A stretch of 64,000 nt of DNA from Chloroflexota bacterium (GTDB lineage: Bacteria; Chloroflexota; Anaerolineae; DTLA01): contig JADBJK010000055.1 of assembly GCA_014874485.1 (NCBI GenBank), forward strand, positions 10,243 to 74,242. The letters run 5' to 3'. Below, piece after piece: positions 4,623-46,520 of this stretch. The notes under the pieces are model-generated. The model was not told the origin of the DNA. It worked only from the letters and a program-made list of their open reading frames with translations, and made no database searches. The position numbers were made by a program, and so were the translations under genes. Each line of letters starts with the position of its first letter. Position 1 is the stretch's first letter.

Positions 4623-6458
<1,836 letters not shown>

Positions 6459-6962: not shown

Positions 6963-7139
6963 ATGCTTGGTCATTCCGCCCCAAAATTGAAATACACCCG
7001 CCCCCTCTGGCGGTCTCCAGCAAAGCGTGGAACTGAGCGACACAACCTGCATTCTGGGTCCGCTTTTGACACGCGGCGCGTTCTATGCTATGCTTTGGCC
7101 AACAACACGATACGCAAGGCGACGAACGGGAACAGTAGG

Positions 7140-7455
7140 CGGCCCGCAAAGGCCCCAGCGAGCCGGAACGGTGAAAGCCGGCGCCCGCGCACCGCCGAAC
7201 CCGCCCGGGAGCCAGCGGCGAAAAGGCCCGCCCGATAAGCCGCTTCGGGTTCCGCCCGTTACCGCGGAGCGGTCTGGCGCTTTCCGTCATTGCCGATGAG
7301 CGCACCGACGAAGAACCTCGCGGCAGAGGATTCTTCGCTCCGCTCGGAATGACAATGACCGGAGGCAGACCGGCTGAGCGGCCGATGCCTCGGCCAGCAA
7401 GGTGGTACCACGGGGTCATCCGCCTCGTCCTTGTAGGACGGGGCGTTTTTGTTGA
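7140..7455 (+). promoter_or_regulatory. Putative T-box leader (tRNA-Pro sensing) upstream of proS
   Basis: T-box-like motif aaGGTGGTACCACGG at 7399-7413. It is followed by a hairpin ccgcctcgtcc-ttgt-aggacggggcg plus TTTTT at 7421-7453. A family-1 palindromic repeat (7285-7355) is embedded in the leader. Confidence 0.4.
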
Positions 7456-7520
7456 ACGACGAGCGGTCAGCAGTCAGCCCACGAATTCACGACCGCTGAC
7501 CGCTGACCGCTGATTGCTGA

Positions 7521-8987
<1,467 letters not shown>

Positions 8988-9252
8988 CCGCTAGGCGGTG
9001 ATGCCTCGCCGCGGAGCGCTGAGATTCGCACCGTACGCCGAACGTGGACATGCCCCCGACCCAGCGCCCTCGCGAAGGGACAAGGTGCGGGGCCGCGCAT
9101 GGGGCGGGGGCGAAGCGAACCAACCCCTGACCGCGGGGACTGCCCTGCGGCATTCGGCGCGCAGGCCCGGAGGGCTTCCCTTCCGGGCCTGGCAAGACCG
9201 TTCTCTTGTTGGGCCGGCGTGCGACGGTGCAGGCCGGGCCCCGGCCGCAAAC

Positions 9253-10347
9253 CTACGCCGCCGCGGGCGCGGGGGCGAACATCCGCTTCCTCAGCGCAAA
9301 CGCCACGTTCACCAGGCCGATCATCACCGGCACCTCAATCAGCGGGCCGATGACGGCGGCGAAGGCCGCGCCCGACTCAATCCCGAAGACCGCCACGGCC
9401 ACCGCGATGGCCAGTTCAAAGTTGTTGCTGGCGGCGGTGAAGGCCAGCGTCGTCGTCTTGCGGTAGTCCGCGCCGATCTTGTGCCCCATCCAGAAACTGA
9501 CCAGGAACATGATCACGAAGTAGAAGACCAGCGGGATCGCGATGCGCACCACGTCCAGCGGGATGGTAACGATGAGGTTCCCCTTCAGGCTGAACATCAC
9601 CACGATGGTGAACAGGAGCGCGCCCAGCGTCATCGGGCTGATGCGCGGCACGAACTGGGTCTCGTACCATTCGCGGCCCTTGGCCCGCATGAGGATGAGG
9701 CGGGTGAGGAACCCGGCGATGAACGGGATGCCCAGGTAGATGAACACGCTCTTGGCGATTTCGCCGATGGTAACGTGCACCACCGTGCCCTGCAGGCCGA
9801 ACCACCCGGGCAGCACGGTGATGAACACGTAGGCGTACACGCTATAGAAGAAGACCTGGAACAGGCTGTTGAACGCCACCAGGCCCGCAGCGTACTCCGT
9901 ATCGCCGTGCGCCAGTTCGTTCCACACGATGACCATCGCGATGCAGCGCGCCAGGCCGATCATGATGAGGCCGGCCATGTATTCGGGATAGGCGCGCAGG
10001 AACACGATGGCGAGGATGAACATGAGGATGGGGCCGATGATCCAGTTCTGCAATAGCGAGAACCCCAGGATCTTCCAGTTGCGGAACACGTCCCCCAGTT
10101 CCTCGTAGTGCACCTTCGCCAGCGGCGGGTACATCATGAGGATTAGCCCGATGGCGATGGGGATGTTGGTTGTGCCCACCGACACGGCCTTGTTGAAGGA
10201 CTGCACGGCGGCGGGGAACAGGTATCCCAGGCCCACGCCCACCGCCATCGCCAGGAAAATCCACAGGGTCAGGAAGCGGTCCAGAACCGACAGTTTTGCG
10301 ACCACACGCGGGGCCGCCGTTGGTGCTGCTGAGACGTTTTCTGCCAT
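9253..10347 (-). CDS. arsB: Arsenite efflux transporter, ACR3 family
   Basis: [27 protein letters not shown]...[25 protein letters not shown]...[13 protein letters not shown] is typical ACR3. Start placed at MAENVS with an AAGGAGAG RBS. Confidence 0.9.
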
Positions 10348-13529: not shown

Positions 13530-13870
13530 GGGATTCACCGCAGAGAGCGCAGAGAGCGCAGAGGGGAAAAGAATATCGTCTCTCTGCGCTCTCTTTGTCC
13601 ATACGGCGCATCATACCGCGCCGCTTTTGTTTTGCCGCCCTCTGGTGCTATAATCCACAGCGGGTACGCGGAAATCGCCGCCGTTTCACCGCAGAGCACG
13701 CTGAGAGCGCAGAGGGGAAAAGAATATCGTCTCTCTGCGCTCTCTTTGTCCATACGGCGCATCATACCGCGCCGCTTTTGTTTTGCCGCCCTCTGGTGCT
13801 ATAATCCACAGCGGGTACGCGGAAATCGCCGCCGTTTCACCGCAGAGCACGCTGAGAGCGCAGAGGATAG
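13530..13870 (+). repeat. Tandem units of about 153 bp. Each carries a 12-bp perfect hairpin and a terminator, and the middle units carry a TTGttt-N16-TATAAT promoter.
   Basis: Unit: ...caccgcagagcacgctgaGAGAGCGCAGAGgggaaaagaatatcgtCTCTCTGCGCTCTCtttgtccatacGGCGCatcataccGCGCCgcTTTTGTTTTgccgccctctggtgcTATAATccacagcgg. TATAAT occurs at 13649-13654 and 13800-13805. Confidence 0.85.
13661..13785 (+). ncRNA. Candidate small RNA. It would be transcribed from the repeat-borne TATAAT promoter, contain the 12-bp-stem hairpin, and end at an intrinsic terminator.
   Basis: Consensus -10 at 13649-13654, predicted TSS about 7 nt downstream, a stable hairpin, then a GC stem plus cTTTTGTTTT at about 13756-13785. 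No coding potential. Confidence 0.35.
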
Positions 13871-14027
13871 GGCCTTTCGCCATGGCCTTTGGCCTCTGGC
13901 TCCTGGCAGCCGTCCAGAGCAACATGCGGATGGCGAAGGGCCAGCGGCTCTGGCTACCATCTCCGCGTTGTTGGCGCGCGGATCTTTCAGCGCGACCCAA
14001 CGGACAACGGTTCACGGAGAGGATGGT

Positions 14028-15242
14028 TTGCGCCTGAAGCGGTTGACGCTCGTCAATTTCAGAAACTACAGCCGCCTGGAGATCGCCTTTGACCGCCCTC
14101 TGATTGTGCTGCAGGGCGACAACGCCCAGGGGAAAAGCAACCTGCTGGAGGCCATCTACATGTTGGCCACCAGCAAATCGCCCCGCGCCAACAGCGATCG
14201 CGACCTGCTCAACTGGTTCGCCGAGAGCGACATCCAGCCCTACGCCCGCATTGACGCCGAGGTGGAGCGCGGCCCGCGCACCGAGCGAATTGAAATCACC
14301 GTGCTGAAGACCAACGGAGGGACCAACGGCCCTGCCGTTCGCAAGCAGATTCGCATCAACGGGGTCAATCGGCGCGCTCTGGACCTGCTAGGCCACCTGA
14401 ACGTGGTGCTGTTCGTGCCGCAGGATGTGGAACTTGTGGACGGAAGCCCCTCGGTGCGGCGGCGGTACCTGGACATCATGCTGTGCCAGATCAACCCCCG
14501 CTACTGCCGCGCGCTCAGCGAGTACTCGCACGCGGTGGTGCAGCGGAGCCACCTGCTGCGGCGGCTGCGCGAGCGGCCTGGCGACCCCGCCCAGTTGGCC
14601 TACTGGGATGAGATGCTGACCACGCGGGGGTCGGAGGTCATCACCTGGCGGCGGCGCGCGGTCATCGCCCTGGACCAACTGGCGGGCGCCATCCACCGCG
14701 AACTGACCAACGGGAGCGAACTCCTGCGCCTGAAGTATCAGCCCAGCCTGCCGATTCCCGAGGCGCTCCAGCCGCCGCTGGGCTTGGAACTGGCCGTCGC
14801 GCAAGACGAGATCGCGGCGATTCAGGCCGCGTTCGCCGAGCGGCTTGCCCGCCTGCGCCCCGCCGAGTTGCACCAGGGGGCCTGCCTGGTGGGACCCCAC
14901 AGGGATGACTTGCGCTTTCTGGTCAATGGGCGCGACCTCCAGACCTATGGCTCGCGCGGGCAGCAGCGCACGGCGGCGCTGTCGCTCAAGATGGCGGAGA
15001 CCCGCCTGATGCACGCGGAGACGGGCGAGCACCCTGTCCTCCTGCTGGACGACGTCCTGTCCGAACTGGACACGAAGCGGCGCGAGTGCCTGCTGGAAGC
15101 GGTCAACGGCGTGGAGCAGGCCATCCTCACCACCACGGACCTGACGCTGTTCTCGGCGGACTTTCTCGCGCGGGCCGATTCCCTGCGAGTAACCGAGGGA
15201 CGCCTCCAGCGCCTGAATGTGGGGAGTGGGCCTGATGACTAG
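14028..15242 (+). CDS. recF: DNA replication and repair protein RecF
   Basis: LRLKRLTLVNFRNYSRLEIAFDRPLIVLQGDNAQGKSNLLEAIYMLATSKS (Walker A). Start assigned to an in-frame TTG at 14028 preceded by GGAGAGG. The ORF in the track is over-extended into the repeats. Confidence 0.85.
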   Translation: MRLKRLTLVNFRNYSRLEIAFDRPLIVLQGDNAQGKSNLLEAIYMLATSKSPRANSDRDLLNWFAESDIQPYARIDAEVERGPRTERIEITVLKTNGGTNGPAVRKQIRINGVNRRALDLLGHLNVVLFVPQDVELVDGSPSVRRRYLDIMLCQINPRYCRALSEYSHAVVQRSHLLRRLRERPGDPAQLAYWDEMLTTRGSEVITWRRRAVIALDQLAGAIHRELTNGSELLRLKYQPSLPIPEALQPPLGLELAVAQDEIAAIQAAFAERLARLRPAELHQGACLVGPHRDDLRFLVNGRDLQTYGSRGQQRTAALSLKMAETRLMHAETGEHPVLLLDDVLSELDTKRRECLLEAVNGVEQAILTTTDLTLFSADFLARADSLRVTEGRLQRLNVGSGPDD

Positions 15243-18523: not shown

Positions 18524-19921
18524 ATGACCAATACATCCGACCGGCAGGACAAACTGACGCCCCTAGAGGCATGGCAGGCAACGCTTGGAGAACTGCAACT
18601 GCAGTTAGCGAAGTCTACCTTTGACGCATGGTTGAAAGATACCACGCTGGTGGCCGCCGAAGACGGCGTCTTCACCATCGGCGCGCGGAACTCCTACGCC
18701 CGCGACTGGTTGGACAACCGCATGCGCGGCCTCGTCAAGCGCACCCTCACGCGCATCGTGGGCCGCCAGGTGGACGTTCGCTTCATCGTGGACGCCAAGC
18801 CGGTGGAATCGCCCGCCCCCAAAGACCTCATCGGATACGACCCGTCCGAGGACGCGCAGGCCCAGGTCAACAGACCCAACGGCCAGGCGTGCGCCCTGAA
18901 TCCGCGCTACACCTTTGAGACCTTCGTCGTGGGGAACGGCAACCGCGTGCCCTACGAAATCTCGCGGGCCGTGAGCGAGCGTCCGGGCATGGCCTACAAC
19001 CCGCTGTTCCTCTACGGCGGCGTGGGCCTGGGCAAGACCCACCTGCTGCACGCCATCGGCCTCAACGCGGCCCAGCGCGGGCTCAACGTGCTCTACGTGC
19101 CCTCGGAGCAATTCACCAACGACCTGGTCTGCGCCATCCGCGCGCGCACCACCGAGGAGTTCCGCAACAAGTACCGCAGCGTGGACGTGCTCCTGCTGGA
19201 CGATATCCAATTCATCGCCGGCAAGGACGCCTCGCAAGAGGAGTTCTTCCACACGTTCAACGCGCTGCACAGCGCCAACCGCCAAATCGTGGTGGCGTGC
19301 GACCGCCCCCCACGCGATGTCCTGGGCCTAGACGAGCGGCTGCGCTCGCGGTTTGAGGGCGGGCTGGTGGTGGAAATCGCCCCGCCCGATTTCGCCGCGC
19401 GCATGGCCATCCTCCAGGCCAAGTCCACGGCCAGGGCCTGTAGCGTCCCGATGCCCATCCTGGAACTCATCGCCCAGACTGTGGAGACCAACGTGCGCGA
19501 ACTGGAAGGCGCGCTCAACCGCGTCATCGCCCAGTGGGAAGCGCTGCGCCAGCCGCCCACGTTGGAGACCACGCAGGCCATCTTGAAGGACATGCTGCCC
19601 AGCAAAGGGCGACCCTCGCCCGAGGCCATCCTGCAGGCTGTAGCCGACTATTTCGGGGTTGACCCCCAGGACATGCTTGGGGCGTCGCGCAAACAACAAA
19701 TCGCCCTGCCCCGCCAGATTGCCATGTACCTGCTATGCGCCGAGACCGACCTCTCGCTCGCGCAGGTCGGTGCGTTCATGGGCAAGCGCGACCACACGAC
19801 CGTCCTCCACGGGCGGGACAAAATCCGCGACCTGATGGAGACCGACGCCGCGATTCGCCTGCATGTCCAGACCATCCGAGAGCGCATGCGCCAGCCAGCC
19901 GCCGTCCGCCAGACGGCGTGA
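18524..19921 (+). CDS. dnaA: Chromosomal replication initiator protein DnaA
   Basis: NPRYTFETFVVGNGNRVPYEISRAV...LFLYGGVGLGKTHLLHAIG (AAA+ Walker A), a sensor region, and the C-terminal DNA-binding domain ...IAMYLLCAETDLSLAQVGAFMGKRDHTTVLH. Confidence 0.95.
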   Translation: MTNTSDRQDKLTPLEAWQATLGELQLQLAKSTFDAWLKDTTLVAAEDGVFTIGARNSYARDWLDNRMRGLVKRTLTRIVGRQVDVRFIVDAKPVESPAPKDLIGYDPSEDAQAQVNRPNGQACALNPRYTFETFVVGNGNRVPYEISRAVSERPGMAYNPLFLYGGVGLGKTHLLHAIGLNAAQRGLNVLYVPSEQFTNDLVCAIRARTTEEFRNKYRSVDVLLLDDIQFIAGKDASQEEFFHTFNALHSANRQIVVACDRPPRDVLGLDERLRSRFEGGLVVEIAPPDFAARMAILQAKSTARACSVPMPILELIAQTVETNVRELEGALNRVIAQWEALRQPPTLETTQAILKDMLPSKGRPSPEAILQAVADYFGVDPQDMLGASRKQQIALPRQIAMYLLCAETDLSLAQVGAFMGKRDHTTVLHGRDKIRDLMETDAAIRLHVQTIRERMRQPAAVRQTA

Positions 19922-22651: not shown

Positions 22652-23644
22652 TTAGCGTTCCTTATCAACCCATTCTCTGACCGCATCTACATTCGCCTCG
22701 GGCGTGCCCAGGTGGATGACGCAGCCCGGGCCGAGGATGAAGCGGTCGCCGCCCGTCTGCGCGAGGGCATCTCGGGCCTCGGCGACGGCCTCCTCGGGCA
22801 CCCCGCTGTGGAACGCGCCGCCCGGGGCATGATTCAGCCCGCCGATGAGCACCCCCGAGAAGTGCGCCCGCGCCTCCGCCAGGCTTGGCCCGGTCGGGCT
22901 ACGGTCGTGCCAGTTGACCGCCTGCACGGGATAGTCCCGCGCCACCTCAAACCGCAAGTTGGGCCTGCACAGGTGCAGGATGTTGAACCACGTCCTTGCG
23001 GCGACCCGCTCCAACACAGGCAGGTCGTAGGCCAGGCCGAACTCGCGGAATGCGTCGGGCGGGAGCGCGTCGCGCGTGGCCCCCTGCACCGCCAGGAAGA
23101 TGCCATCCGCGCCCGCCTCCACGCAGGCCTGGGCGAAGTCGGCGGCGGTCTCGGTGATGGCCTTCAGCCCCACGTGCAGGTCGGGGCCGGCCGACAGGGC
23201 GTGCCGGTACACCGCGTCGCCCGCCAGGTTCCGCGCGATGGTGAGCGGCGCGAACGCCGTCGCCACGATGGGAATCCCCGACCCCAGTTCGTCGCGCAGC
23301 ATGCGCAGCGCCCGCACCTGATTGCCCAGAGCGCCCCGCAGGGGGTCAAGCGGGCGCAGGCTCCGCCAATCGGCGGGCGCTTTGACAACGTGCTCGGCCA
23401 CGGGCACGTGCCCCTCGCTGCGGTCGTAGCCCGCGAAGCGGTTGCCCCAGTCCACGGTAAACGCCCAGTTGTTGAACATCGCTTTCACAAAGTCCAGGTC
23501 CCAACGGCGGACGAAGCGGACCGTCGCCTTCACCAGACCTTCCGGTGTGGCGTCTTCGGGCGGCAGATGCCGCCAGATGGCGAACGGGACGCGGTCCGTC
23601 TTCTCGCCTCGGATGACCCGCCTGATTCGCTCCGATTTGTCCAT
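22652..23644 (-). CDS. Uroporphyrinogen decarboxylase (URO-D) family protein (MtaA/CmuA-like)
   Basis: 330 aa with a URO-D-like sequence. AGGAG RBS. Confidence 0.75.
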   Translation of the reverse strand: MDKSERIRRVIRGEKTDRVPFAIWRHLPPEDATPEGLVKATVRFVRRWDLDFVKAMFNNWAFTVDWGNRFAGYDRSEGHVPVAEHVVKAPADWRSLRPLDPLRGALGNQVRALRMLRDELGSGIPIVATAFAPLTIARNLAGDAVYRHALSAGPDLHVGLKAITETAADFAQACVEAGADGIFLAVQGATRDALPPDAFREFGLAYDLPVLERVAARTWFNILHLCRPNLRFEVARDYPVQAVNWHDRSPTGPSLAEARAHFSGVLIGGLNHAPGGAFHSGVPEEAVAEARDALAQTGGDRFILGPGCVIHLGTPEANVDAVREWVDKER

Positions 23645-23657
23645 CTCCTAAATCCTT

Positions 23658-24878
23658 TCATTCGCTTGTCGCCGGCGATTTCCGCCCGGGCAGAAACAGG
23701 ATTAGCGGAAGCGCGGCCAGGGTCGCAACCGCGCCCAGGACGAACGCCCAGCGAAGCCCGATCCAGTCGCCGAGAACGCCGGCCAGGGCAACCGCCAGCG
23801 CGTAGATGATGAAGTTCATGGAGCCGTACACCCCATTGGCCAGCGCCCGATGTTCGGGGAAACTCTCCTGCACCAGCGCGGTGAGCACCGTCGGCACACA
23901 CAGCGACGTGAACCCCAGCAGGAGCAGCATCCCGACCTGGGCAAGCCCGCGCGTGGACAGGAAGGCGAACATGCACAGCGGCGCGGTCGTGAACAGCAGC
24001 GCCAGCGTCTGCCTTCGCCCCAGCGAGTCGCTCACCGAACCCGCCGCCAGCGCCCCGGCCACGCCCGCGGCCTGGAGTATGGACAGCGACGCGCCCGCCA
24101 CCCACAGGCTTGCGCCACGGTCCCGCAGGAACACCGGCAGGAACGTGGTGATCGCGGCGACCATGGGCGACCGCAGGAGCGTGATGCCGATAAGCGGGAG
24201 CAGCAGCGGCTTCATCCCCGGCAGAATCTGCCGCCAACTGCCCACGCGCACGTTGCTCGCGGGCGCGGTCTGGGCCGCCGACAGGCGCGAGGCGATGAAC
24301 AGCGCGGTCAGGACGCCGATGATCATCAGCCAGGGCAGCCCCTTCAGGCCGAGGAACTGTATCGCACTCACGAGCAGGACAGGCCCGATGGTGTAACCCA
24401 GTTCGCCGCCCACCATCCAGATGCCGATGCCGCGCCCAAGCCGCCTGCCGGCCAGCCGCCCCGCCAGCGGCGGCGCTACCGAATGGAACGCAGCGGAACT
24501 CAACCCCGCCAGGGTGAGCATCAGCGCCACGATGCCATACGCGGGCGCTACACCCAGCAGGCTCATCAGGATGCCAGTTACGGCCGGGCCGAGGATGACC
24601 AACAGGCGCAGGTTGACCTTGTCGGCCAGGTGGCCGATGACCGGCTGCAACACCGACGGCCACTGCAGGAACACCATGAGCAGGCCCGCCTCCGTCTTGG
24701 ACAGGGCCAGGTTGGTGATGAACGTGGGCAGGAGCGGGGCCAGGAACGACGCGTACATGTCGTGCACCGTGTGGCCCACGGCTATCGTGATGACGCGGCT
24801 TGCCTGGAACCCCTGCACTTCCCCCTCAGGGGCTGGCGGTGAAACAGGCCCTTTGCGGGCGGTAACGATGGCCTTCAT
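23658..24878 (-). CDS. MFS transporter
   Basis: 12 predicted TM segments with MFS-like loops. Start at MKAIVT preceded by AAAGAGG. The 5' extension in the track has no support. Confidence 0.85.
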   Translation of the reverse strand: MKAIVTARKGPVSPPAPEGEVQGFQASRVITIAVGHTVHDMYASFLAPLLPTFITNLALSKTEAGLLMVFLQWPSVLQPVIGHLADKVNLRLLVILGPAVTGILMSLLGVAPAYGIVALMLTLAGLSSAAFHSVAPPLAGRLAGRRLGRGIGIWMVGGELGYTIGPVLLVSAIQFLGLKGLPWLMIIGVLTALFIASRLSAAQTAPASNVRVGSWRQILPGMKPLLLPLIGITLLRSPMVAAITTFLPVFLRDRGASLWVAGASLSILQAAGVAGALAAGSVSDSLGRRQTLALLFTTAPLCMFAFLSTRGLAQVGMLLLLGFTSLCVPTVLTALVQESFPEHRALANGVYGSMNFIIYALAVALAGVLGDWIGLRWAFVLGAVATLAALPLILFLPGRKSPATSE

Positions 24879-24930
24879 GCGAACCTCTTTGCATAGGGTG
24901 GTCTCGGTGGAGGGTGGGGCGGGCGCACGG

Positions 24931-25725
24931 TCAGGTCGTGTGGCCCTGGGCCGACGCGGAGGCTCCGCTCCGGGCGACGATCCACTCGTGCGTCGTCTGC
25001 CACACGAATTCGCGCTCGCTGTCCACCGTGAGGCAGTGGCCCGAGTTGTGGAGCACGATGAGCGTCTTGTCGGCCGAGCCGATCTCGTCGTGGACGATCT
25101 GCCCGCAGTCGGTGCGGATGGACGCATCGCGGCTGCTCTGGAAGATGAGCACCGGCACCGTGATGGACGGCAGCAGGCGGCGCGCTTCCTTCTGGATGAG
25201 CGAGACCTGGTAGGCCGACTCGCCGGGGATCACGTCGTAACTCCACAGCATCTTGTGGGCCTCGGGGTCGGTCAGGTCCGAGTCCTGGGGTTCCTCCTTG
25301 CGGTTCCAGCGCATGATGTGGCGGAACGGCCGCACGAACTTCATGCGCCAGTCGCGGGCGATGAGGGCCGGCGCGTACAAGATCGCGCCCGCGATGGTCG
25401 GGTACCGCGCGGCGAGGCAAAGCGTCAGCAGCGAGCCGAGGGACAGCCCGCCGACGAACACCTGCGCGCACTCGGCCCGAAGGCGCACGAGGGCCTCCTC
25501 CGCCGAGGCGTACCAGTCGCGCCAGGTGGTTTTCGCCAGGTCGCGGTAGTCGGTCCCGTGGCCCGCCAGGAGCGGCGCGGAGACGGTGAGGCCCTGGCGG
25601 GCCAGGTACTCGCCCAGCGGGCGCATCTCGGGCGGCGAGCCGGTGAACCCGTGAATCAGCAGGCAGCCGACCGGGCCGCCGCGGAAGTAGAACGGTTTCG
25701 GGTCAAGCCAGGGATGCTGCGTCAT
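24931..25725 (-). CDS. Alpha/beta hydrolase (carboxylesterase / lysophospholipase-like)
   Basis: LLIHGFTGSPPEMRPLGEYLARQGLTVSAPLLAGHGT...GGLSLGS nucleophile elbow. Confidence 0.8.
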   Translation of the reverse strand: MTQHPWLDPKPFYFRGGPVGCLLIHGFTGSPPEMRPLGEYLARQGLTVSAPLLAGHGTDYRDLAKTTWRDWYASAEEALVRLRAECAQVFVGGLSLGSLLTLCLAARYPTIAGAILYAPALIARDWRMKFVRPFRHIMRWNRKEEPQDSDLTDPEAHKMLWSYDVIPGESAYQVSLIQKEARRLLPSITVPVLIFQSSRDASIRTDCGQIVHDEIGSADKTLIVLHNSGHCLTVDSEREFVWQTTHEWIVARSGASASAQGHTT

Positions 25726-30213: not shown

Positions 30214-30741
30214 ATGCTGTGCAAGGAGTACGACCTGGAAGTCATCTCGCCACCATGCGATCCGGGATCGGAGCGCTGGAGCGCCTTCGTGCGGCTCCAG
30301 GAGGACATCAGCGAGGTCATGCCCTACCTCAATACACTGTGGAAGAATGCTATCTACGACCATGAAAACCGCATCCTGACGATGGTGCGGGGAGGCCGCC
30401 GCTACACCCTCCGCCCGCACGAGGTGGCCATTAGCAACCTGGAGGACCGCCAGGAGGCCCAGCGCGTGGCCGAGCGCATTTTGGATGAGATCAACAGGGT
30501 GTGGGACAGGCGGCATGAGATCGTGCCTTCCTACGAGAAGCGCCACCAGCCCACCGTGATGGAAATCTACAAACTCCTGCCGGGCGGGAACTGCAAGCAG
30601 TGCGGCGACCCCACCTGCTTCGTCTTCGCCAGCAAACTGGTGGCCGGGACGACGGAACTGACGCGCTGCGTGCGCCTCTACGAAGCGGAGTTCGCCGACA
30701 AGCGAGCGCGCCTGGAGGAGATTCTGGGGTTGGTGGGTTGA
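30214..30741 (+). CDS. Small Fe-S protein with a CX2CX4CX16C (CFeSP/AcsC-type, PF04060-like) cluster motif
   Basis: NCKQCGDPTCFVFASKLVAGTTELTRC has the exact 2/4/16 Cys spacing. GGGAGG RBS. Confidence 0.6.
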   Translation: MLCKEYDLEVISPPCDPGSERWSAFVRLQEDISEVMPYLNTLWKNAIYDHENRILTMVRGGRRYTLRPHEVAISNLEDRQEAQRVAERILDEINRVWDRRHEIVPSYEKRHQPTVMEIYKLLPGGNCKQCGDPTCFVFASKLVAGTTELTRCVRLYEAEFADKRARLEEILGLVG

Positions 30742-34985: not shown

Positions 34986-35452
34986 TTGTCATTGCGAGGG
35001 GCGAAGCCCCGAAGCAATCTCCGAACGTGAGATTGCTTCGCTTCGCTCGCAATGACAGATAAGGTGTCTTTGCGAGGGGCGAAGCCCCGAAGCAATCTCC
35101 GAACGTGAGATTGCTTCGCTTCGCTCGCAATGACAGATAAGGTGTCTTTGCGAGGGGCGAAGCCCCGAAGCAATCTCCGAACGTGAGATTGCTTCGCTTC
35201 GCTCGCAATGACAGATAAGGTGTCTTTGCGAGGGGCGAAGCCCCGAAGCAATCTCCGAACGTGAGATTGCTTCGCTTCGCTCGCAATGACAGATAAGGTG
35301 TCTTTGCGAGGGGCGAAGCCCCGAAGCAATCCCACGGGATGCGAGATTGCTTCGCTTCGCTCGCAATGACAGATAAGGTGTCTTTGCGAGGGGCGAAGCC
35401 CCGAAGCAATCCCACGGGATGCGAGATTGCTTCGCTTCGCTCGCAATGACAG
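34986..35452. repeat. Second tandem array of about 6 x 78-bp units of the family-1 palindromic element (variant tttgcgaggggcgaagccccgaagcaatctccgaacgtgagattgcttcgcttcgctcgcaatgacagataaggtgtc)
   Basis: Period 78 bp, with copies starting near 34990, 35068, 35146, 35224, 35302 and 35380. It sits in the convergent gap between the YqeB-like gene (+) and the CN-hydrolase gene (-). Confidence 0.9.
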
Positions 35453-35494
35453 ATGGCAATGCTCTCCGCAGTCAACCACGGGCCGGGCACGCCG

Positions 35495-36280
35495 CTACAG
35501 GTACAATTCCGGGCGCTGCCCCTGGCCGACGGGCAGTTTTCGCCGCGCCTCGGCCACGTCGGCCAGATCCACGTCGGCGCACAGGATTTGCTCCGCGGTG
35601 CCCGCCTCGGCGATGCGCTCGCCCCAGGGCGACGCCACCACCGACAGCCCCGCCAACGGCTCGCCGCAGCATAGGCCCACCCCGTTGGCCCCCACGAGGA
35701 ACGCCAGGCTCTGCAACGCCGTCGCCACCGTGAGGATGCGCCAGTGCTCCGCCCGCGCCTGCGGCCACTGCGCCGCGACCAGCAGCACCTCCGCGCCGAG
35801 GGCCGCCATGCGCTGGAACAGGCCGGGGAATCGCAGGTCGTAGCAGATGGCCAGGCCGATGCGCCCGATGTCCGTCGGCACGACCACAACATCGCCGCCA
35901 GGGGTGAAGTAGTCCGGTTCGCGCAGCAGGGGGATCAGGTGCGCCTTGCGGTAGCGGGCCAGCAGGTTCCGACCAGGCCCTGCCAGCGCCAGCGTGTTGT
36001 AGAACCGGTCGCCGTCGCGCTCGGCCAGGCCCCAGGCCACGTGGGCGCGGTAGCGGGCGGCCAGGCCCGCCATCGCCGCGGTCGTCTCGCCATCCAGCGG
36101 CTCGGCCAGCGTGTCCAAGCGAGGCAGGTCGTAGCCGCAGGCGGCCAGTTCCGGGAGCAGCACCAGTTGCGCGCCGTCATCCAGCGCGCGCCGGGCCAGG
36201 TCGGCCATGCGGCGGCGGTTGGCGGCAGGGTCGCCCGCGGCGATGTGCATTTGGATTGCGGCCACGCGGACCTTGGGCAT
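35495..36280 (-). CDS. Carbon-nitrogen hydrolase family protein (nitrilase/amidase superfamily)
   Basis: RVAAIQMHIAAGDPAANRRRM...LVLLPELAACGY...GLAICYDLRFP: the catalytic E-K-C triad context is present. Confidence 0.85.
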   Translation of the reverse strand: MPKVRVAAIQMHIAAGDPAANRRRMADLARRALDDGAQLVLLPELAACGYDLPRLDTLAEPLDGETTAAMAGLAARYRAHVAWGLAERDGDRFYNTLALAGPGRNLLARYRKAHLIPLLREPDYFTPGGDVVVVPTDIGRIGLAICYDLRFPGLFQRMAALGAEVLLVAAQWPQARAEHWRILTVATALQSLAFLVGANGVGLCCGEPLAGLSVVASPWGERIAEAGTAEQILCADVDLADVAEARRKLPVGQGQRPELYL

Positions 36281-36379
36281 TCTGGAATCCTCTCCAAGAT
36301 AGGCCGGTTACAAAACCCGTCTTTGCGTGTAGGGGCGGCCTGGCAGGCCACCCCTACTGCTTGGCCATAGAGAAAATTG

Positions 36380-36600
36380 CCAGTTGTCATTACGAGCGAA
36401 GCCAAGCCATCCAGTCGGCCCACGTGCGACGCACCTCGGAGGTGCGTCGCACGTGCCTTCTCACGTCATGCTGAGCAAAGCGACGCATCTCGGTTGGCGA
36501 GATTCTTCGGCGCCCCACGCCTCAGCCCGTAGGGACAATTCATGAATTGTCCCTACGGGCGCTCCGCGCCCTCGCAATGACACACCGTCAAGACTCCCTG
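36380..36600. repeat. Repeat cluster: family-1 element, CGTGCGACGCACCTCGGAGGTGCGTCGCACG palindrome, and REP-like GTAGGGACAATTCATGAATTGTCCCTAC
   Basis: Direct reading. It shares the two palindromes with 27370-27575. Confidence 0.85.
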
Positions 36601-36623
36601 TGGTAGAGTACTACACGGATGCT

Positions 36624-38099
36624 CTACGGCGCGTAGCGGAACGGATGGCGCGCCGAATGCTTCTCGGCAACCAGTTCCTCAAACGTCGGCCGGCCTTCCA
36701 GCGCCTTGCGGACTGCTGCTTTCATCGCCTTGAAGTTGTTGATGCGCACCCGCCATCGGTTGCTGGCCCCCGGATGCACGAACACGTTGGCGATGAGCAC
36801 GATGTCGTCCAGCAGCGCCGGCGGCAGCGTGCCATCCTTGACCAGCGCCTCCAGCGCCATGACCACGCCGCCCGCCGCGTGCTCGTACACGTTCTCGGCC
36901 TGGCGCTTGGTGCGCACCGTTACCGTCGGCACCAGCAGCGTCTTCGGGCGGTCAAAGATGATGCGGAGTTCGTGGCCCGGACGCGGCTCGGCCAGCGCCC
37001 GCTCTATGGCCTTGCCCACCGGGCCGTCCTTGCGGCCGATGAGCAGGTCAATGTGGGCCAGTTCCGAGAAGGGCGGGCCGGCGAACCCCTCGCCCACCAG
37101 GAGCGTCATGTCCCGCACCTCACTGGGTGCGGCGGGCGGCTTGGGGAACTGGCTCGTCGCCGTCGGGCCGCCCGGGTACAGGTGGTAGGTCATGGGGCGC
37201 GGCGGAATCTTGCCCAACTCCTCCAGCACGCCGCGCACCTCTTCGTAATCCTCGCGGCGGAAGGCGTCGCCCTTCATCATCGGGTGGCGCGAATCGCCGA
37301 TGGGAAGCCCCAGCAGTTGCAGCGCCTCCTTGACCGCCTGGGTCGGCCCCTGCCGCGCCAAGATGCGGACGAACCGCTGGATGCGCGCCATCAGGGTCTG
37401 CGCCGTCGCCAGGTCGCCCGACAGGACGGCCTTGTAGATGGTCTGCCACACGTCCGGGATGACGTTGGCGCTGGCCAAGATCGCGCCGTCGGCTCCCATC
37501 GCCAGCGCGGCGGGCACGATTTCGTCGTGGCCAGTGAAGATGCCGATCTTGCCGCGCACCTTCTCAAACACCGCCATCAGGTAGGGCATGTCGCCGCTGG
37601 AGTCCTTGATGCCCACGACGTTCTCCAGATAGGCCATGCCCTCGGTCGTCCACCACTGGTAGTGCGTCCCCGCGCACTGGGGGATGTTGTACAGGATGAG
37701 CGGCACGCCCAGTTTGTTCAGCGCGTCGTAGTGATCGTACACCTCGTTAAACGACGGCTTGAGGTAATAGGGCGCGGCGACCAGAGCGGCCGTAACGCCC
37801 GCGTCCCTGGCCCACGCCGTCATCTTGACCGTCTCGCGGGTGGACGGGTAGGCCGTGCCCGCCACGACCGGCACGCGCCCGTTGACCTCATCCAGGGCGA
37901 TCTCAATGGCCCGCTTGCGCTCGTCTTCCAGCATGTACACGAATTCGCCCGTCGTGCCGCAGGGGACGATGCCATTGACATGGGGCAGGACGTAGCGGAT
38001 GAGTTCGCGGTAGGCGGCCTCATCCACCCGGTCGTCCTTGGTGAAGGGCGTTACCAGGGCAGGGAAGATTCCTTTGAACCAATCGGGTTTCTTTGACAT
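36624..38099 (-). CDS. Fusion of a DapA/NAL-family (dihydrodipicolinate synthase-like) lyase with a C-terminal formaldehyde-activating enzyme (Fae) domain
   Basis: N-terminal GIFPALVTPF...VPCGTTGEF... is DapA-family. The C-terminal LLVGEGFAGPPFSELAHIDLLIGRKDGPV...DDIVLIANVFVHP...KHSARHPF aligns with Fae ([20 protein letters not shown]...KSATHPF). Start at MSKKPDWF with an AAGGAGAG RBS. Confidence 0.8.
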   Translation of the reverse strand: MSKKPDWFKGIFPALVTPFTKDDRVDEAAYRELIRYVLPHVNGIVPCGTTGEFVYMLEDERKRAIEIALDEVNGRVPVVAGTAYPSTRETVKMTAWARDAGVTAALVAAPYYLKPSFNEVYDHYDALNKLGVPLILYNIPQCAGTHYQWWTTEGMAYLENVVGIKDSSGDMPYLMAVFEKVRGKIGIFTGHDEIVPAALAMGADGAILASANVIPDVWQTIYKAVLSGDLATAQTLMARIQRFVRILARQGPTQAVKEALQLLGLPIGDSRHPMMKGDAFRREDYEEVRGVLEELGKIPPRPMTYHLYPGGPTATSQFPKPPAAPSEVRDMTLLVGEGFAGPPFSELAHIDLLIGRKDGPVGKAIERALAEPRPGHELRIIFDRPKTLLVPTVTVRTKRQAENVYEHAAGGVVMALEALVKDGTLPPALLDDIVLIANVFVHPGASNRWRVRINNFKAMKAAVRKALEGRPTFEELVAEKHSARHPFRYAP

Positions 38100-38115
38100 G
38101 GGTCTCTCCTTTGCC

Positions 38116-39537
38116 CTACGCGCCGAACGCCTGGCGGATGGCGGCGTTCGTTGCGGCCAGCACCGCATGATACAGGGCGTGGCGATCCAGGGCCTTGGGG
38201 TGTACGCTGGCCTGCACCAGCATCACGTGCGTGTCCATGGCCGACTTGGGAATCGTGCCGTCTTCCAGCGCGTCCACGATGGCGCGGGCCACCGCCGCCT
38301 GCGTGGGGCCGTAGATCATGTTGGCCTGGCGCAGGTTCCGCAGTTCCGCCGTCGGGACGATGAGCGTGGACGGGCGCACGGTGAGGTTCGGCTCCAGGAT
38401 GGTGGTCAGCGCCTCGTAGCCGTGGCGCGGGTAGGTGAGTTGCAGCGCGAACGCCTCGCCCACAAGGCCGTCCTTCGGCCCCGCGACCAGGTCTATCTGC
38501 ACGTTCTCCGGCTCCACGCCCGCCGTGCCGGTCCCCACACGCAGCGAGGCGGCCTTCACCTGTTCGGCTGAGATGCCCAGCGCGGCGAACCGCCCGGCCA
38601 GGGGGCCGTCGGGCGGCGCGTAGGCGCTGTCGTCGGGGGCCACCTTGCCCAGGCGCTCCAGTTCCAACTGGATCTCGGCGCGGTCCTCGTGGGTCAGGCT
38701 GCCGCCGACTTTGAGCGGACGCCGCGCCTGCCCCACCGGAATCCCCATCATGTTCAGCGCCTGCTTGACGGCCAGGCCGCCGCCGTAGCGGCAGAAGATG
38801 CGCGACAGTTTCTGGACGCTACGCTGGAGCGCGCGGGCTTCCTCTATGCGGCCCTCCTGCACGGCGGCATAGACCTGCTGCCACACTTCGGGGTACACGT
38901 TGGCGCTGGCCAGAATCATGCCGGTGCAGCCCCCCGCCAGCGCCGGCAGCACCACCTCGTCGTGGCCGACGAACACGTCAATCCGCCCCTGCACCATCTC
39001 CAGAATCTCCATGGTGTAGGTGAGATTCCCCGACGAGTCCTTGATGCCCACGATGTTGGGGATGTCCGACAGGTCTTCCACCACGTTGCGCGGCAGGTAG
39101 GCATCCACCACCTGCGGGATGTTGTACAGCAGGATGGGGATGTCCACCGCCATCGCCACGTCGTAGAAGTGCTGATAGATGCCCTTGTCGGACGGGTGCA
39201 GAAAGAACGGGGTAACCACCAGGCAGGCGTTGGCCCCGGCTTCCTTCGCGTTGCGGGCCAGGAGGATGGTCTCCTTCGTCCCGGCAGCGCCCGTGCCGGC
39301 GATGATGGGCTTGCGCCCTGCCACCTCATCCACGACGATGGAGATGACGCGCTTTTGCTCATCGGGGGTCATGTACGGGAACTCGCCGGTCGTCCCGCAG
39401 GGCACGAACCCGTCCACATGGGGCAGCAGGTGGCGCACCAGCGCGCGCAGCGCCGGCTCGTCCACCTCCTCATCTTTGGTGAAAGGCGTTACCAACGCGG
39501 GGAAGACGCCCCGCAACCACGGCAGTTTTGCAGGCAT
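38116..39537 (-). CDS. Paralogous DapA-family lyase with a divergent Fae-like C-terminal domain
   Basis: MPAKLPWLRGVFPALVTPF...VPCGTTGEFPYM. The C-terminal LRVGTGTAGVEPENVQIDLVAGPKDGLVGEAF...HVMLVQASVHP is Fae-like. GGAGG RBS. Confidence 0.75.
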   Translation of the reverse strand: MPAKLPWLRGVFPALVTPFTKDEEVDEPALRALVRHLLPHVDGFVPCGTTGEFPYMTPDEQKRVISIVVDEVAGRKPIIAGTGAAGTKETILLARNAKEAGANACLVVTPFFLHPSDKGIYQHFYDVAMAVDIPILLYNIPQVVDAYLPRNVVEDLSDIPNIVGIKDSSGNLTYTMEILEMVQGRIDVFVGHDEVVLPALAGGCTGMILASANVYPEVWQQVYAAVQEGRIEEARALQRSVQKLSRIFCRYGGGLAVKQALNMMGIPVGQARRPLKVGGSLTHEDRAEIQLELERLGKVAPDDSAYAPPDGPLAGRFAALGISAEQVKAASLRVGTGTAGVEPENVQIDLVAGPKDGLVGEAFALQLTYPRHGYEALTTILEPNLTVRPSTLIVPTAELRNLRQANMIYGPTQAAVARAIVDALEDGTIPKSAMDTHVMLVQASVHPKALDRHALYHAVLAATNAAIRQAFGA

Positions 39538-39642
39538 TCGGGAACCTCCGATGCAAAATCTCGCGGGGCGCGCAGGGGATACCGCAGACCGCCGTCCGGC
39601 GACCCGGGCGCCCCGCACGCCACCGCGAACGATGCGAGTTGG

Positions 39643-40593
39643 CTACGGCTTCGGGATAGCCAGGCCCTTGCAGCCCTGCTTGGAGAGGATGAGGTCGGGC
39701 TGGTTCTCCTGAATCAGGGTGTGGATGATCTCGGCGTACTTCACCTTCTCGCGGGCGAAGTCGGCCAGGGCCTGGGGGCTGGTCCACGGCTTGTACAGCG
39801 CCCCCGGCCCGGCAGCGCAGGCGGGCCCAGGCTCAATCTTGAAGTAGCAGGGCGCGCAGACCCGCGCCATCTCGGCCCCGTCGTAGAAGCGGTTGTACCC
39901 ACCGAAGGACTCCGCCAGGTAGATGTGCAGGTCCATGGGGATGTCCACGGCCTGGCGGATGGAGGCCAGTTGCGGCAGGCTCAGGTCGCCCACGGGGTTG
40001 AAGGTGCCCGCGCCCAGCGACTGGAGCACCTTGCCGCCCGCCGCCGAGGCGTGCCCCGCGTAGATGGAGACCTTGAACGTTACGTCATCGGGAATCTCGC
40101 CCGCCTTGCGGAGTTCGTTCAGGAGCCACAGGAGGCCCTCGTCAATCACCAGGAAGCCGCGGAAGCCGATCTCAATGCACGTGAGGATGTCGGTGATGAC
40201 GTAGCGGAGTTGGTCGGAGCCGCGGAAGCGGAGGCCCGACAGGCCACCTTCGGGGGTAACGACTTGCCGCCCCACGTCCCACGCGGCGCGCGGCCCGGGC
40301 GTCAGGATGACTTCCAGCCTGTTCTCGGCGGCGATCTGGGCGAAGTCGCGCAGTTCCGCCCGGTCCAGGAGCGTGGCGCCCATGACTACGGAGATGACGC
40401 GGTGGATGGGGATCTTGCGCCGGTTCATCTCATCAACAAGCGCCTCCAACACGTTGGGCCGCTCCACGCCCGAGATTTCCATGCGGTAGTGGGCGCCATC
40501 GGGGAAGCGCTTGGGGCTGGATGGGAGGTCGTAGGCGTCCCGGCCGGGGATGCCCACCTTCTCCATCATCTTGGCGACGCGATCCATATTCAT
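39643..40593 (-). CDS. Hypothetical protein (possible TIM-barrel enzyme) in the same orientation as, and directly downstream of, the DapA-Fae pair
   Basis: 316 aa with an AAGGAGGG RBS. No family recognised by eye. Confidence 0.4.
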   Translation of the reverse strand: MNMDRVAKMMEKVGIPGRDAYDLPSSPKRFPDGAHYRMEISGVERPNVLEALVDEMNRRKIPIHRVISVVMGATLLDRAELRDFAQIAAENRLEVILTPGPRAAWDVGRQVVTPEGGLSGLRFRGSDQLRYVITDILTCIEIGFRGFLVIDEGLLWLLNELRKAGEIPDDVTFKVSIYAGHASAAGGKVLQSLGAGTFNPVGDLSLPQLASIRQAVDIPMDLHIYLAESFGGYNRFYDGAEMARVCAPCYFKIEPGPACAAGPGALYKPWTSPQALADFAREKVKYAEIIHTLIQENQPDLILSKQGCKGLAIPKP

Positions 40594-40743
40594 TTGTCAA
40601 CCCTCCTTCGCAATATTCACTGGCCTCTTTGCCGCAAATTCCCGCGGAGGTAAGGACAACCACACCGTTCCGCCCGCAGTATACCATGCGGGGCGAGGGG
40701 TGTCAATCTGGGGCGAGGCGGTTCGGCGCGTCCTCCGGCGGCG

Positions 40744-41124
40744 GAATTCACCGCAGAGACGCAGAGAACACAGAGGGTAGAGATTGAACTTGAGTTCTCC
40801 GCGCTCTCTGCGCTCTCTGTGGTGCGGTACGGATTTCACCGCGGGGAGCGCGGCGGATTTGGAACACGAAAGCCGCGAAAGGACACGAAAAGGCGCGAAA
40901 ACCTTTCGTGCCTTTCGTGCGGTTTCGTGCCCTCCGTGCTCCGATCTCCGCGCGCTCTGCGTTCTCTGCGGTGCGGTACAGATTTCACCGCGGGGAGCGC
41001 GGCGGATTTGGAACACGAAAGCCGCGAAAGGACACGAAAAGGCGCGAAAACCTTTCGTGCCTTTCGTGCGGTTTCGTGCCCTCCGTGCTCCGATCTCCGC
41101 GCTCTCTGCGCTCTCTGCGGTGAA
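40744..41124. repeat. Composite repeat: two direct copies of about 149 bp (caccgcagag family plus cacgaaag family modules)
   Basis: ggtgcggtacggatttcaccgcggggagcgcggcggatttggaacacgaaagccgcgaaaggacacgaaaaggcgcgaaaacctttcgtgcctttcgtgcggtttcgtgccctccgtgctccgatctccgcg... is repeated at 40821 and 40970. It is flanked by ctctgcgctctctgcggtg palindromes. Confidence 0.85.
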
Positions 41125-41127
41125 GTA

Positions 41128-42333
41128 CTACTCGTACCGCAAGCGCCAGAACCCGAGGCCGAAGAACACGGCGGCGAAGGCCAGCAGCACCCCCGCCTCG
41201 GGCAGGATGCCGCCAACCCCCTGCCCGCGCACGACGATGTCGCTGAACCCGGCCATGGCCCACGTCGTCGGGAATATCCGCACCACCTGCTGGTACACCT
41301 GCGGCGTGATCTCCAGCGGCCACCACGCGCCCCCTAGTGCCGCCATGAGCATGCCGCTGCTGATGGCCATCCAGTTGGCCTGGCTGGGCGTCTTGGCTAC
41401 GGTACCCACCAGCACGCCCAAGGCCACGAACGCCAGCGCGAAGGCCAGCATCATGAGGGCCAGCGCCAGCGGCGACCGTCCCCAGTTGACACCCAAGACC
41501 AGCGCCCCGAACACAATCAACAGCGCCATCTGCACCATGCCGTGGATCAGCCGCCCGCCGATTTTGCCGCCGAGGATGATTTCCCGCCCGACCGGCATCG
41601 CCAGCAGACGGCGCAGCGTCCCCTGCCGCCGCTCATCAATGAAGATGGCGGCCACCCCGATGAGGGGAATGGACACCCACGTAACCAACTGCCCCACCGA
41701 CGACTGTTCGGCAGCGTTGGCGCTGGTGCGGATGACTTCGGGCGCGTAGGTCGTCTCGGCGCGGGCGGGCGGGTTCGCCAGCAGTTCCTGCGCCATCGCC
41801 ATGGCCTGCTGGAAGTACGCCCGTCTCGCCGCCGCGTCGGCGAAGGGGCGTATCCGTTCGGCCTCGGCGACGCTGGCGGTGGCTGCCAGGACGGCGTTGC
41901 TCACCCTGTCCGCCGCGGCGCGCACGGCTTGCTCCACCGCCAGCGCGCGCGTGTCGTTGGGCGCCTGGGTCAGCGTGAGGTCCGACACGCGGCCCGCCAT
42001 CAGCGCCTCGCCGAACCCGGTGGGGATGATGAGCGCGGCGGCCACCTTGCCGTCCTTGACCAGGGCCTCGGCCTCGGCGCGGGTTCGGGCGACCGGCCTC
42101 ACCACATCCGACTCTGCGAGGAGCGCCGTCAGTTGGGACGACAGGGCGCTCGCGTCCTCGTCCGCCACCGGCAGGGTGTAGCGGTTGTCGCCGTCGGAAC
42201 TCCCGCCCCCCGACATCGTAGCGGCCAAGATGAGCGTGAAGATAACGGGCAGGACAAGGAAGAAGATCAGTTCGGACTTGTCCGCGAACCCCATCTTGAA
42301 GTCCAGCCATGCAATCGCAAGCAGTTTTCGCAT
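41128..42333 (-). CDS. ABC-2 type transporter permease
   Basis: N-terminal TM, a large extracytoplasmic loop, and five C-terminal TM segments. Start at MRKLLAIAWLDF. Confidence 0.8.
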   Translation of the reverse strand: MRKLLAIAWLDFKMGFADKSELIFFLVLPVIFTLILAATMSGGGSSDGDNRYTLPVADEDASALSSQLTALLAESDVVRPVARTRAEAEALVKDGKVAAALIIPTGFGEALMAGRVSDLTLTQAPNDTRALAVEQAVRAAADRVSNAVLAATASVAEAERIRPFADAAARRAYFQQAMAMAQELLANPPARAETTYAPEVIRTSANAAEQSSVGQLVTWVSIPLIGVAAIFIDERRQGTLRRLLAMPVGREIILGGKIGGRLIHGMVQMALLIVFGALVLGVNWGRSPLALALMMLAFALAFVALGVLVGTVAKTPSQANWMAISSGMLMAALGGAWWPLEITPQVYQQVVRIFPTTWAMAGFSDIVVRGQGVGGILPEAGVLLAFAAVFFGLGFWRLRYE

Positions 42334-46027: not shown

Positions 46028-46252
46028 GGCAGGCTCCTCAATAGCGAATTCCACGGCGCGGAATTGGGGCCATGCCGCGCCGCAGGTACCGCGCACGATT
46101 GTGCCAGAGCCTGGCCTGAGTGTCAAGACGCGGTGAGGCCGGGGCGCGGGGCGAGAACGTTCATCCGCGAATCACACGAATCGGCACGAATAGCGATTCG
46201 CGCCCATTCGCGGACAGCGTCGGCAGAAATGCTCCGCAGGTCAGGCTACGGG

Positions 46253-46520
46253 CCGGGGCGGGGGCGTTTGGAGCGCGAAGGCGCGAAAGACGCGCGGGGC
46301 TGAACCCCGCGCTGAAGGGACAAAGCCCCGTTGGGGCTTGGGTAGCCCGCAGGGCTTCGCCCATTCAGCCCGACGGCTTCAGCCTCGGGCCGGGGGCGCG
46401 AGGCGTTTGGAGCGCGAAGGCGCGAAAGACGCGCGGGGCTAAACCCCCGCGCTGAAGGGACAAAGCCCCGTTGGGGCTGGGGCAGCCCGCAGGGCTTCGC
46501 CCATTCAGCCCGACGGCTTC
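46253..46520. repeat. Two direct copies of an about 135-bp GC-rich unit containing perfect hairpins (gcgcgggg-ctgaa-ccccgcgc)
   Basis: ggcgtttggagcgcgaaggcgcgaaagacgcgcggggctgaaccccgcgctgaagggacaaagccccgttggggcttgggtagcccgcagggcttcgcccattcagcccgacggcttc is repeated. Confidence 0.85.

Follow-up and report, generated by a model that had tools for sequence, protein, structure and literature searches.

Archaeal Fae-Hps fusions already couple the formaldehyde-activating enzyme (Fae) to a formaldehyde-handling lyase, and PanB, the ketopantoate hydroxymethyltransferase, adds a one-carbon (C1) unit to a 2-oxoacid. The locus described here lies in a 64,000-nucleotide stretch of Chloroflexota DNA (assembly GCA_014874485.1, contig JADBJK010000055.1, positions 10,243 to 74,242 of the forward strand; hereafter the window), in which three genes follow one another on the minus strand. 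In transcription order, these are X316 (40593..39643), encoding a protein of 316 amino acids (aa), DF2 (39537..38116), encoding a 473-aa fusion of a DHDPS-family aldolase with a degenerate Fae-like domain, and DF1 (38099..36624), encoding a 491-aa fusion of a DHDPS-family aldolase with a complete Fae domain. An earlier reading of the letters alone (the sequence-only reading) had singled out these open reading frames (ORFs), all of which exist, and had called two of the products DHDPS-family barrels with Fae-type domains, a call borne out by Pfam and by the NCBIfam Fae cut-off, which both C-terminal domains pass.

In our favored, although still tentative, reading, the DF pair is a Fae-coupled class I 2-oxoacid hydroxymethyltransferase that is equivalent to PanB, with X316 acting at an adjoining step. 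What the sequences show directly is the domain content and residue patterns, conservation of the operon, and the exclusive alternation of panB and DF genes beside X316.

Domains and conserved residues of the fusion proteins

The N-terminal DHDPS-type barrel (Pfam PF00701) occupies 37266..38078 in DF1 (residues 8-278, E 5.5e-71) and 38671..39516 in DF2 (residues 8-289, E 4.4e-72), both on the minus strand, and the nearest solved structures to the DF1 barrel are DHDPS and NanA. The C-terminal Fae domain (PF08714; cut-off 27 bits), also on the minus strand, lies at 36639..37097 in DF1 (residues 335-487, 114.1 bits, E 8.4e-33) and at 38125..38538 in DF2 (residues 334-471, 128.7 bits, E 2.7e-37). 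With the NCBIfam model one_C_fae (TIGR03126), the two score 125.1 and 122.7 bits, respectively, both above the curated cut-off of 118.05. The DF1 domain aligns with Methylobacterium Fae (1y5y), residues 7-166, and both domains match the Fae part of NF009833 (5,6,7,8-tetrahydromethanopterin hydro-lyase / 3-hexulose-6-phosphate synthase). The Fae domain of DF2 had been described as the more divergent one, which does not hold for the Pfam score, where DF2 outscores DF1, but does hold for the C-terminus, the match being truncated to profile positions 1-138 of 159, and for the Fae histidine, which is replaced by Gln. DHDPS and Fae were the only domains found in the Pfam scan of DF1 and DF2, with no match to the PanB family PF02548.

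Active-site residues were compared in 19 DF1 and 25 DF2 orthologs aligned with E. coli DapA (E. coli numbering). The GTTGE motif, Tyr133, Lys161, Gly186, and Ile203 are invariant in all of these orthologs, so the Schiff-base machinery for a 2-oxoacid appears to be intact; Thr44 is likewise invariant. The position of Arg138, which in DHDPS holds the carboxylate of aspartate semialdehyde, is Cys in 19/19 DF1 and Val, Thr, or Ala in 25/25 DF2 orthologs, a substitution that is also visible in the phmmer alignment with solved DHDPS. The replacement of Arg138 argues that DF1 and DF2 are not DapA of the lysine pathway, and, judged by these sequence patterns, they are neither DapA nor plain Fae. The names carried by close relatives in source databases, “4-hydroxy-tetrahydrodipicolinate synthase” and “formaldehyde-activating enzyme,” are unsafe for the same reason. 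It is very improbable that the fusions are ordinary 4-hydroxy-tetrahydrodipicolinate synthases with an accessory Fae domain, even though DF2 exceeds the cut-off of the NCBIfam dapA equivalog (228.6 vs. 206.15 bits), the nearest solved structures are DHDPS, and the sources annotate relatives as DapA. DF1 falls below the same cut-off (199.3 bits), Arg138 is replaced not only in every DF1 and DF2 ortholog but also in 61/61 of the single-copy fusions described below, and the genes are linked to X316, where they alternate with panB, with no lysine-pathway homolog recognized among the annotated neighbors.

DF1 and DF2 have complementary losses. Tyr107, which in DHDPS reaches the active site of the partner subunit across the tight dimer, is invariant in the 19 DF1 orthologs and is Phe in 23/25 DF2 orthologs; the Fae histidine (in AHIDL; His22 of Methylobacterium Fae) is invariant in DF1 and is Gln in 23/25 DF2 orthologs; and the C-terminal Fae tail (ARHPF), present in DF1, is missing in the DF2 of the window. 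Because DF1 keeps all three features and DF2 has lost them, the pattern suggests an obligate DF1:DF2 heteromer with division of labor. The DF orthologs are 61-74% identical, the three closest genomes excepted. In two loci, DF2 occurs without DF1 in the downstream sequence covered (~2 kb in L048 and ~8 kb in L066), which suggests that the pair is not always contiguous and that DF1 may lie elsewhere or be absent there. DF2 and DF1 are separated in three genomes of Anaerolineae or Caldilineae by a gene for a xylose-isomerase-like TIM barrel (Pfam AP_endonuc_2; L019 11414-12298, L039 3537-4403, L043 7723-8577), and this insert may be an extra pathway member.

Related fusions are found outside Chloroflexota as single-copy genes. 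In proteins source-labeled Hadarchaeum, Bathyarchaeia, and Promethearchaeota, a complete Fae domain comes after the end of a DHDPS barrel, and a metagenome scan seeded with these archaeal-labeled sequences returned 80 low-GC loci with one fusion each (~494 aa), which is ~50% identical to DF1 and DF2 alike; the contigs are apparently archaeal. Thr44, Tyr107, Tyr133, Lys161, the Fae histidine, and the tail are kept in 61/61 full-length copies, all of which have Cys (52/61), Val, or Ala at the Arg138 position. An X316 homolog (53-65% identity) adjoins the fusion or lies within 3 kb of it in 13/80 loci; TrmI/GCD14-family tRNA methyltransferase, CoA-ligase-like, and kinase-like proteins among the neighbors give no pathway clue. 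The Chloroflexota pair probably arose by duplication of the single-copy form, with DF1 staying near the ancestor and DF2 degenerating.

X316 and its alternative partners

The pairing of X316 with either the fusion or panB is the most informative fact about this system. Context was counted in the neighborhoods of X316 at 80 reference loci. The same-strand neighbor of X316 is panB in 29/80 loci and DF2, usually followed by DF1, in 25/80; no locus has both, and 26/80 have neither, with <2.5 kb of sequence after X316 in 12 of these 26. The PanB neighbors score 315-327 bits with the panB equivalog model (cut-off 207.55), and a 47%-identical X316 relative has a panB homolog 10 nt downstream. No panB was found in the window by tblastn with the PanB proteins of the loci. 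In a neighbor-joining tree of X316 (computed without support values), loci with DF and loci with PanB are intermingled. L024, L032, and L083 (PanB), for instance, have L066 and L075 (DF) as their sister group, and the clade of the window's X316 is sister to a PanB clade of Bipolaricaulota and Fraserbacteria. For alternation in place, the classical reading would be non-orthologous displacement, in which panB and DF do equivalent jobs for the pathway of X316. PanB and a Fae-coupled aldolase would then have in common that they place a C1 unit of formaldehyde oxidation level on C3 of a 2-oxoacid.

X316 is uncharacterized, as had been supposed, and sequence searches of Pfam, NCBIfam, and the PDB gave no match for the window protein. 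AlphaFold2, run with a diverse alignment on the product of 39643-40593, gave a confident eight-stranded TIM barrel (pLDDT 95, pTM 0.92). The top solved structure in Foldseek is the U32 peptidase Mk0906 (5d88; E 5e-8, TM-scores only 0.41/0.51), followed by class II fructose-bisphosphate and tagatose-bisphosphate aldolases, with many other TIM barrels close behind. Pfam Peptidase_U32 (PF01136) matches 25/32 X316 relatives weakly (best E 7.7e-8) and does not match the window protein, and a few family members weakly match TrhP or UbiU models. Going by the model, X316 is predicted to be a TIM barrel that is distantly peptidase-U32-like. Residues conserved across the family (Ser26, Phe30, Asp32, Glu39, Arg145, Asp151, Lys174, Ser176, Asn199, Arg213, Asp221, Arg235, and Lys252) suggest, as judged by eye, that the substrate is anionic and that carboxylates may bind a metal. 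Conservation of Cys246, Cys249, and Cys259 is limited to the close X316 subfamily, and P0245, the panB-linked 47% relative, has them only in part; an iron-sulfur enzyme was rejected because these cysteines are not among the family-wide conserved residues. X316 as a paralog of PanB was also rejected (profile-profile probability 0.7%).

The X316 family comprises 863 clusters at 50% identity, with relatives in 363 reference species (Chloroflexota, Bipolaricaulota, Fraserbacteria, Coatesbacteria, and WOR-3). Within it, a subfamily of 74-99% identity is found in 80 reference genomes (Chloroflexota, Bipolaricaulota/Acetothermia, Fraserbacteria, Coatesbacteria, and WOR-3), making X316 more conserved than its partners, given the identity of the DF orthologs stated above and of PanB (~50% between phyla). 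The sequence-only reading had suggested a module for handling or condensing aldehydes that is specific to this lineage. A condensing role remains the most plausible one, but lineage specificity is lost with the spread of X316 across phyla and of the fusions to archaeal-labeled proteins and low-GC contigs; the DHDPS-Fae family is abundant and not a lineage curiosity. As to chemistry, X316 could be the source of the 2-oxoacid (a dehydratase would be one such enzyme), or it could process the 4-hydroxy-2-oxoacid product.

Some of the genes around X316 were read by eye, with no profile search. Among these, a gene read as formate-tetrahydrofolate ligase lies directly 5' of X316-panB in four Fraserbacteria and Bipolaricaulota loci (L011, L014, L021, and L022); genes read as MetF and MetV, together with an Hdr-like protein, lie upstream in L021 and MetV lies upstream in L022, and a divergent gene read as FolD is present in L011 and L014. 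Taken at face value, these assignments would put X316-panB inside a methyl-branch gene cluster, that is, in a C1-carrier setting. X316 as a substitute for FolD or MetF was rejected, since genes read as FolD, MetF, and MetV occur beside Fhs-X316-panB in these two groups. A gene read by eye as transaldolase/fructose-6-phosphate aldolase immediately precedes X316, on its strand, in three loci of the DF type (L045 8644-9519, L055 9154-9951, and L070 9119-9862), and a similar gene lies within ~10 kb in six further loci.

In two separate lineages, X316-panB is head-to-head with mevalonate-pathway-type genes (L001/L030 group, 6441-9808; L006/L083, 6953-9806); the Bipolaricaulota and Fraserbacteria version has two thiolase-family genes and DUF35-type (zf-ChsH2) genes, and that of a Chloroflexia metagenome-assembled genome has mevalonate kinase and UbiD/UbiX-type genes. 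Distant X316 relatives (35-41% identity) occur in unrelated catabolic operons (L088 521-8240 and L093 1826-13091). One of these, with the 41%-identical relative, contains GntR, the carboxylate transporter TctCBA, a PrpD-like protein, and a plain aldolase of the DHDPS family; the other contains a peptide ABC transporter, two Amidohydro_2 genes, creatininase, a short-chain dehydrogenase, and an aldo-keto reductase. The distant relatives were rejected as a guide to function because these operons are unrelated, and further contigs are too short.

Proposed reaction and competing readings

From these patterns, we infer a heteromer, a reaction direction, an acceptor substrate, a C1 carrier, and a chemistry for X316. 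DF1 and DF2 would be the two kinds of subunit in a class I (Schiff-base) aldolase, whose Fae-type domain handles the formaldehyde-level C1 unit. A 2-oxoacid would form an imine on the barrel lysine (Lys161) and be deprotonated at C3 to the enamine; the Fae domain of DF1, with its intact histidine, would interconvert formaldehyde and a methylene-pterin carrier and hand over the C1 unit; and attack of the enamine on this unit would yield a 4-hydroxy-2-oxoacid, which would be ketopantoate if the acceptor is 2-oxoisovalerate and 4-hydroxy-2-oxobutanoate if it is pyruvate. The reaction type would be that of PanB, reached via an unrelated scaffold, and X316 would take the same 2-oxoacid, substrate or product, through an adjoining step. 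It may be speculated that the Cys at the former Arg138, where the aldehyde partner of DHDPS binds, forms a transient hemithioacetal with formaldehyde.

Several observations weigh against this PanB-equivalent reading. X316 has neither partner nearby in the 26 loci noted above, the mutual exclusivity of panB and DF holds at the level of the loci, and the X316 tree carries no support values. With E. coli sequences as queries, the 10 kb around X316 or DF gave no panC, panE, or panD homolog at any of the loci or in the window, and a pantothenate operon was rejected on this result. DHDPS-family enzymes normally use pyruvate, and none is known to make an enamine of the branched 2-oxoisovalerate. As for the carrier, no gene linked to tetrahydromethanopterin (H4MPT), for which the sequence-only reading had proposed a check, is present among the scanned ORFs of the window, so a classical Fae function is unsupported here. 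In addition, X316 is operonic with homoserine dehydrogenase and aldehyde dehydrogenase, in two gene orders, in L047 (7343-10951), L061 (20-3438), and L069 (10001-13550), the homoserine dehydrogenase scoring 430.8 bits with an equivalog cut-off of 373; this association points towards C4 (homoserine) chemistry over pantoate.

On the choice of acceptor, the parallel with PanB would argue for 2-oxoisovalerate, and the habit of the DHDPS family would argue for pyruvate, which is favored by the lack of panC, panE, and panD nearby and by homoserine dehydrogenase beside both X316 and the single-copy fusion. A possible, if on balance unlikely, alternative goes further and takes the fusion to be a pyruvate-specific aldolase that makes 4-hydroxy-2-oxobutanoate from pyruvate and Fae-delivered formaldehyde, with X316 processing this product and no pantoate involved; the module would then connect C1 units with the metabolism of homoserine and the aspartate family, or serve formaldehyde assimilation or detoxification. 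Consistent with this, DHDPS-family enzymes depend on pyruvate and all pyruvate-binding residues are kept in the fusions, panB is the sole pan gene nearby, and, besides the three X316 operons just mentioned, homoserine dehydrogenase directly adjoins the single-copy fusion in L126, L131, and L132 and lies 2 kb from it in L158. However, the link to homoserine dehydrogenase is confined to few loci, and on the metagenome contigs beside the single-copy fusion the gene is convergent and so not co-transcribed; no aminotransferase is consistently linked; and in 29 loci X316 is instead partnered by a bona fide panB of high score, the known substrate of PanB being 2-oxoisovalerate.

The module might also run in the direction of cleavage, with the aldolase splitting a 4-hydroxy-2-oxoacid, Fae capturing the formaldehyde on a pterin as a C1 source, and X316 perhaps making the 4-hydroxy-2-oxoacid, e.g., as the dehydratase of a dihydroxy or sugar acid. 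The reaction of PanB can run both ways, the architecture parallels that of Fae-Hps, to which the NCBIfam match also points, and the operon of the 41%-identical X316 relative, with TctABC, a PrpD-like protein, and a DHDPS-family aldolase, resembles the dehydratase-plus-aldolase pathways for sugar acids. We nevertheless consider this quite unlikely, as the close X316 subfamily has no linked transporter or regulator, and X316 is highly conserved, has strong promoter-like and Shine-Dalgarno signals, and lies among genes of housekeeping type, e.g., those read as YebC-RuvC-RuvA, so that it looks biosynthetic and not catabolic.

A broader version of the PanB-equivalent reading extends to the single-copy form, for which H4MPT is a plausible carrier. 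The DHDPS-Fae fusion would be a hitherto unrecognized, pterin-linked ketopantoate or 4-hydroxy-2-oxoacid synthase of H4MPT-type archaea, a counterpart of PanB without homology to it, that spread to Chloroflexota and was duplicated there into a catalytic/degenerate heteromer, with X316 as a new, near-invariant enzyme of the same pathway; as a whole, this scenario is doubtful.

Setting of the locus and relation to known systems

X316, DF2, and DF1 form a single predicted operon, with gaps of 105 nt between the end of X316 and the start of DF2 and of 16 nt between the end of DF2 and the start of DF1. The sequence-only reading had placed the 316-aa gene downstream of the fusions; with all genes on the minus strand, it is in fact upstream. 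A putative sigma-70-like promoter (TTGACA-17-TATACT with a TG extension; 40706..40678, minus strand) lies ~85 nt 5' of the X316 start codon, and a strong AGGAGG Shine-Dalgarno sequence precedes the ATG, which argues that X316 is the first gene of the operon. The promoter is predicted by consensus match: 11/12 positions agree, and 0.7 such sites are expected in shuffles of the region. A riboswitch or leader as a clue to X316 was rejected, as 35400-41300 gave no relevant Rfam hit even at E values as high as 10, and, in the loci examined, the regions upstream of X316 have only the promoter and Shine-Dalgarno sequence in common; over the entire window, Rfam found one tRNA and nothing else. Downstream, a CN-hydrolase (nitrilase-superfamily) gene (35495..36280, minus strand) begins 343 nt 3' of DF1 and is possibly co-transcribed with it. 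Every NCBIfam match of this gene is below cut-off and it adjoins DF1 only in the three closest genomes (L008-L010); it is probably outside the conserved module.

The window belongs to ordinary chromosome and probably lies near the replication origin: the ORFs scanned with Pfam include dnaA, a RecF-like SMC-family ATPase, gyrB, ftsH, and prolyl-tRNA synthetase, and partial gyrB, the RecF-like gene, and dnaA (35-1474, 13632-15242, and 18524-19921) all lie within 20 kb. The nearest genomes are labeled Caldilineae or Anaerolineae. Two arrays of a 78-nt tandem repeat (1538-1997 and 34987-35454; 5.9 copies each, 94-98% matches), whose consensus units have a common core in opposite orientation, yield long spurious ORFs with repeated peptide motifs. 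Intergenic tandem repeats of ~140-151 nt (2.0-2.2 copies) are present at 13534-13866, 40796-41122, and 46241-46520. Within the second of these, which is just 5' of the X316 promoter, two hairpins on the minus strand resemble terminators. Elsewhere, a URO-D-family protein is encoded beside an MFS transporter (22652-25127, minus strand), and a 175-aa protein (30214-30741, plus strand) has a PF04060 putative Fe-S domain, a domain associated with corrinoid and acetyl-CoA-synthase systems.

If the PanB-equivalent reading is correct, the DF pair would add a C1 unit to a 2-oxoacid by a new enzymatic route, in which a Schiff-base aldolase comes with its own formaldehyde/pterin station, and would take the place of PanB in many anaerobes, possibly including archaea that use methanopterin instead of folate. 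The DapA and Fae labels would be functionally wrong and mislead reconstructions of lysine synthesis and methylotrophy, and a natural formaldehyde-fixing aldolase would be of interest for synthetic C1 assimilation. The context of X316 also gives concrete candidate substrates for a protein with ~80% identity between phyla and no function assigned to it. The literature searched contained no description of a DHDPS-Fae fusion or of X316, which is in keeping with the sequence-only reading, in which the fusion had no place in a known pathway, and searches on U32 proteins and pantothenate and on missing pantoate enzymes returned nothing relevant.

Among described systems, the archaeal Fae-Hps fusions (NF009833) are like DF in that Fae is fused to a C-C lyase with formaldehyde as substrate or product, an arrangement that lets formaldehyde travel between a pterin carrier and an aldol site. 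The partner domain is different: that of DF is a DHDPS-type class I 2-oxoacid aldolase, whereas Hps is a hexulose-phosphate synthase of the OMP-decarboxylase family. In DF, moreover, Fae is C-terminal, the Chloroflexota have two paralogs with complementary losses, and X316 is a conserved third gene. PanB (PF02548) takes the same operon slot beside X316 in sister lineages and has the reaction type predicted for DF, but the two lack sequence homology, and PanB works through an enolate, depends on a metal, and takes the C1 unit straight from methylene-tetrahydrofolate, while DF would use a lysine enamine and a separate Fae-type C1 site.

X316 resembles the U32 peptidases and their relatives (Mk0906 5d88; UbiU/UbiV, TrhP, and RlhA) in its TIM barrel, for which Mk0906 is the best solved match. 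In contrast to this group, the window protein matches no U32 model, the TM-scores are only 0.41-0.51, and the cysteines that bind the iron-sulfur cluster in UbiU/UbiV have no counterpart conserved across the X316 family; its genomic partners are C1 enzymes acting on 2-oxoacids and not RNA or quinone pathways. With the DHDPS/N-acetylneuraminate lyase family (DapA, NanA, and YagE/YjhH), DF shares the fold, Thr44-Tyr133-Lys161, and GTTGE, but it lacks Arg138 and has a C-terminal Fae domain, and DF2 has Phe for Tyr107. Overall, the architecture is a variation on the known Fae-Hps idea and the known reaction type of PanB, built from different parts.

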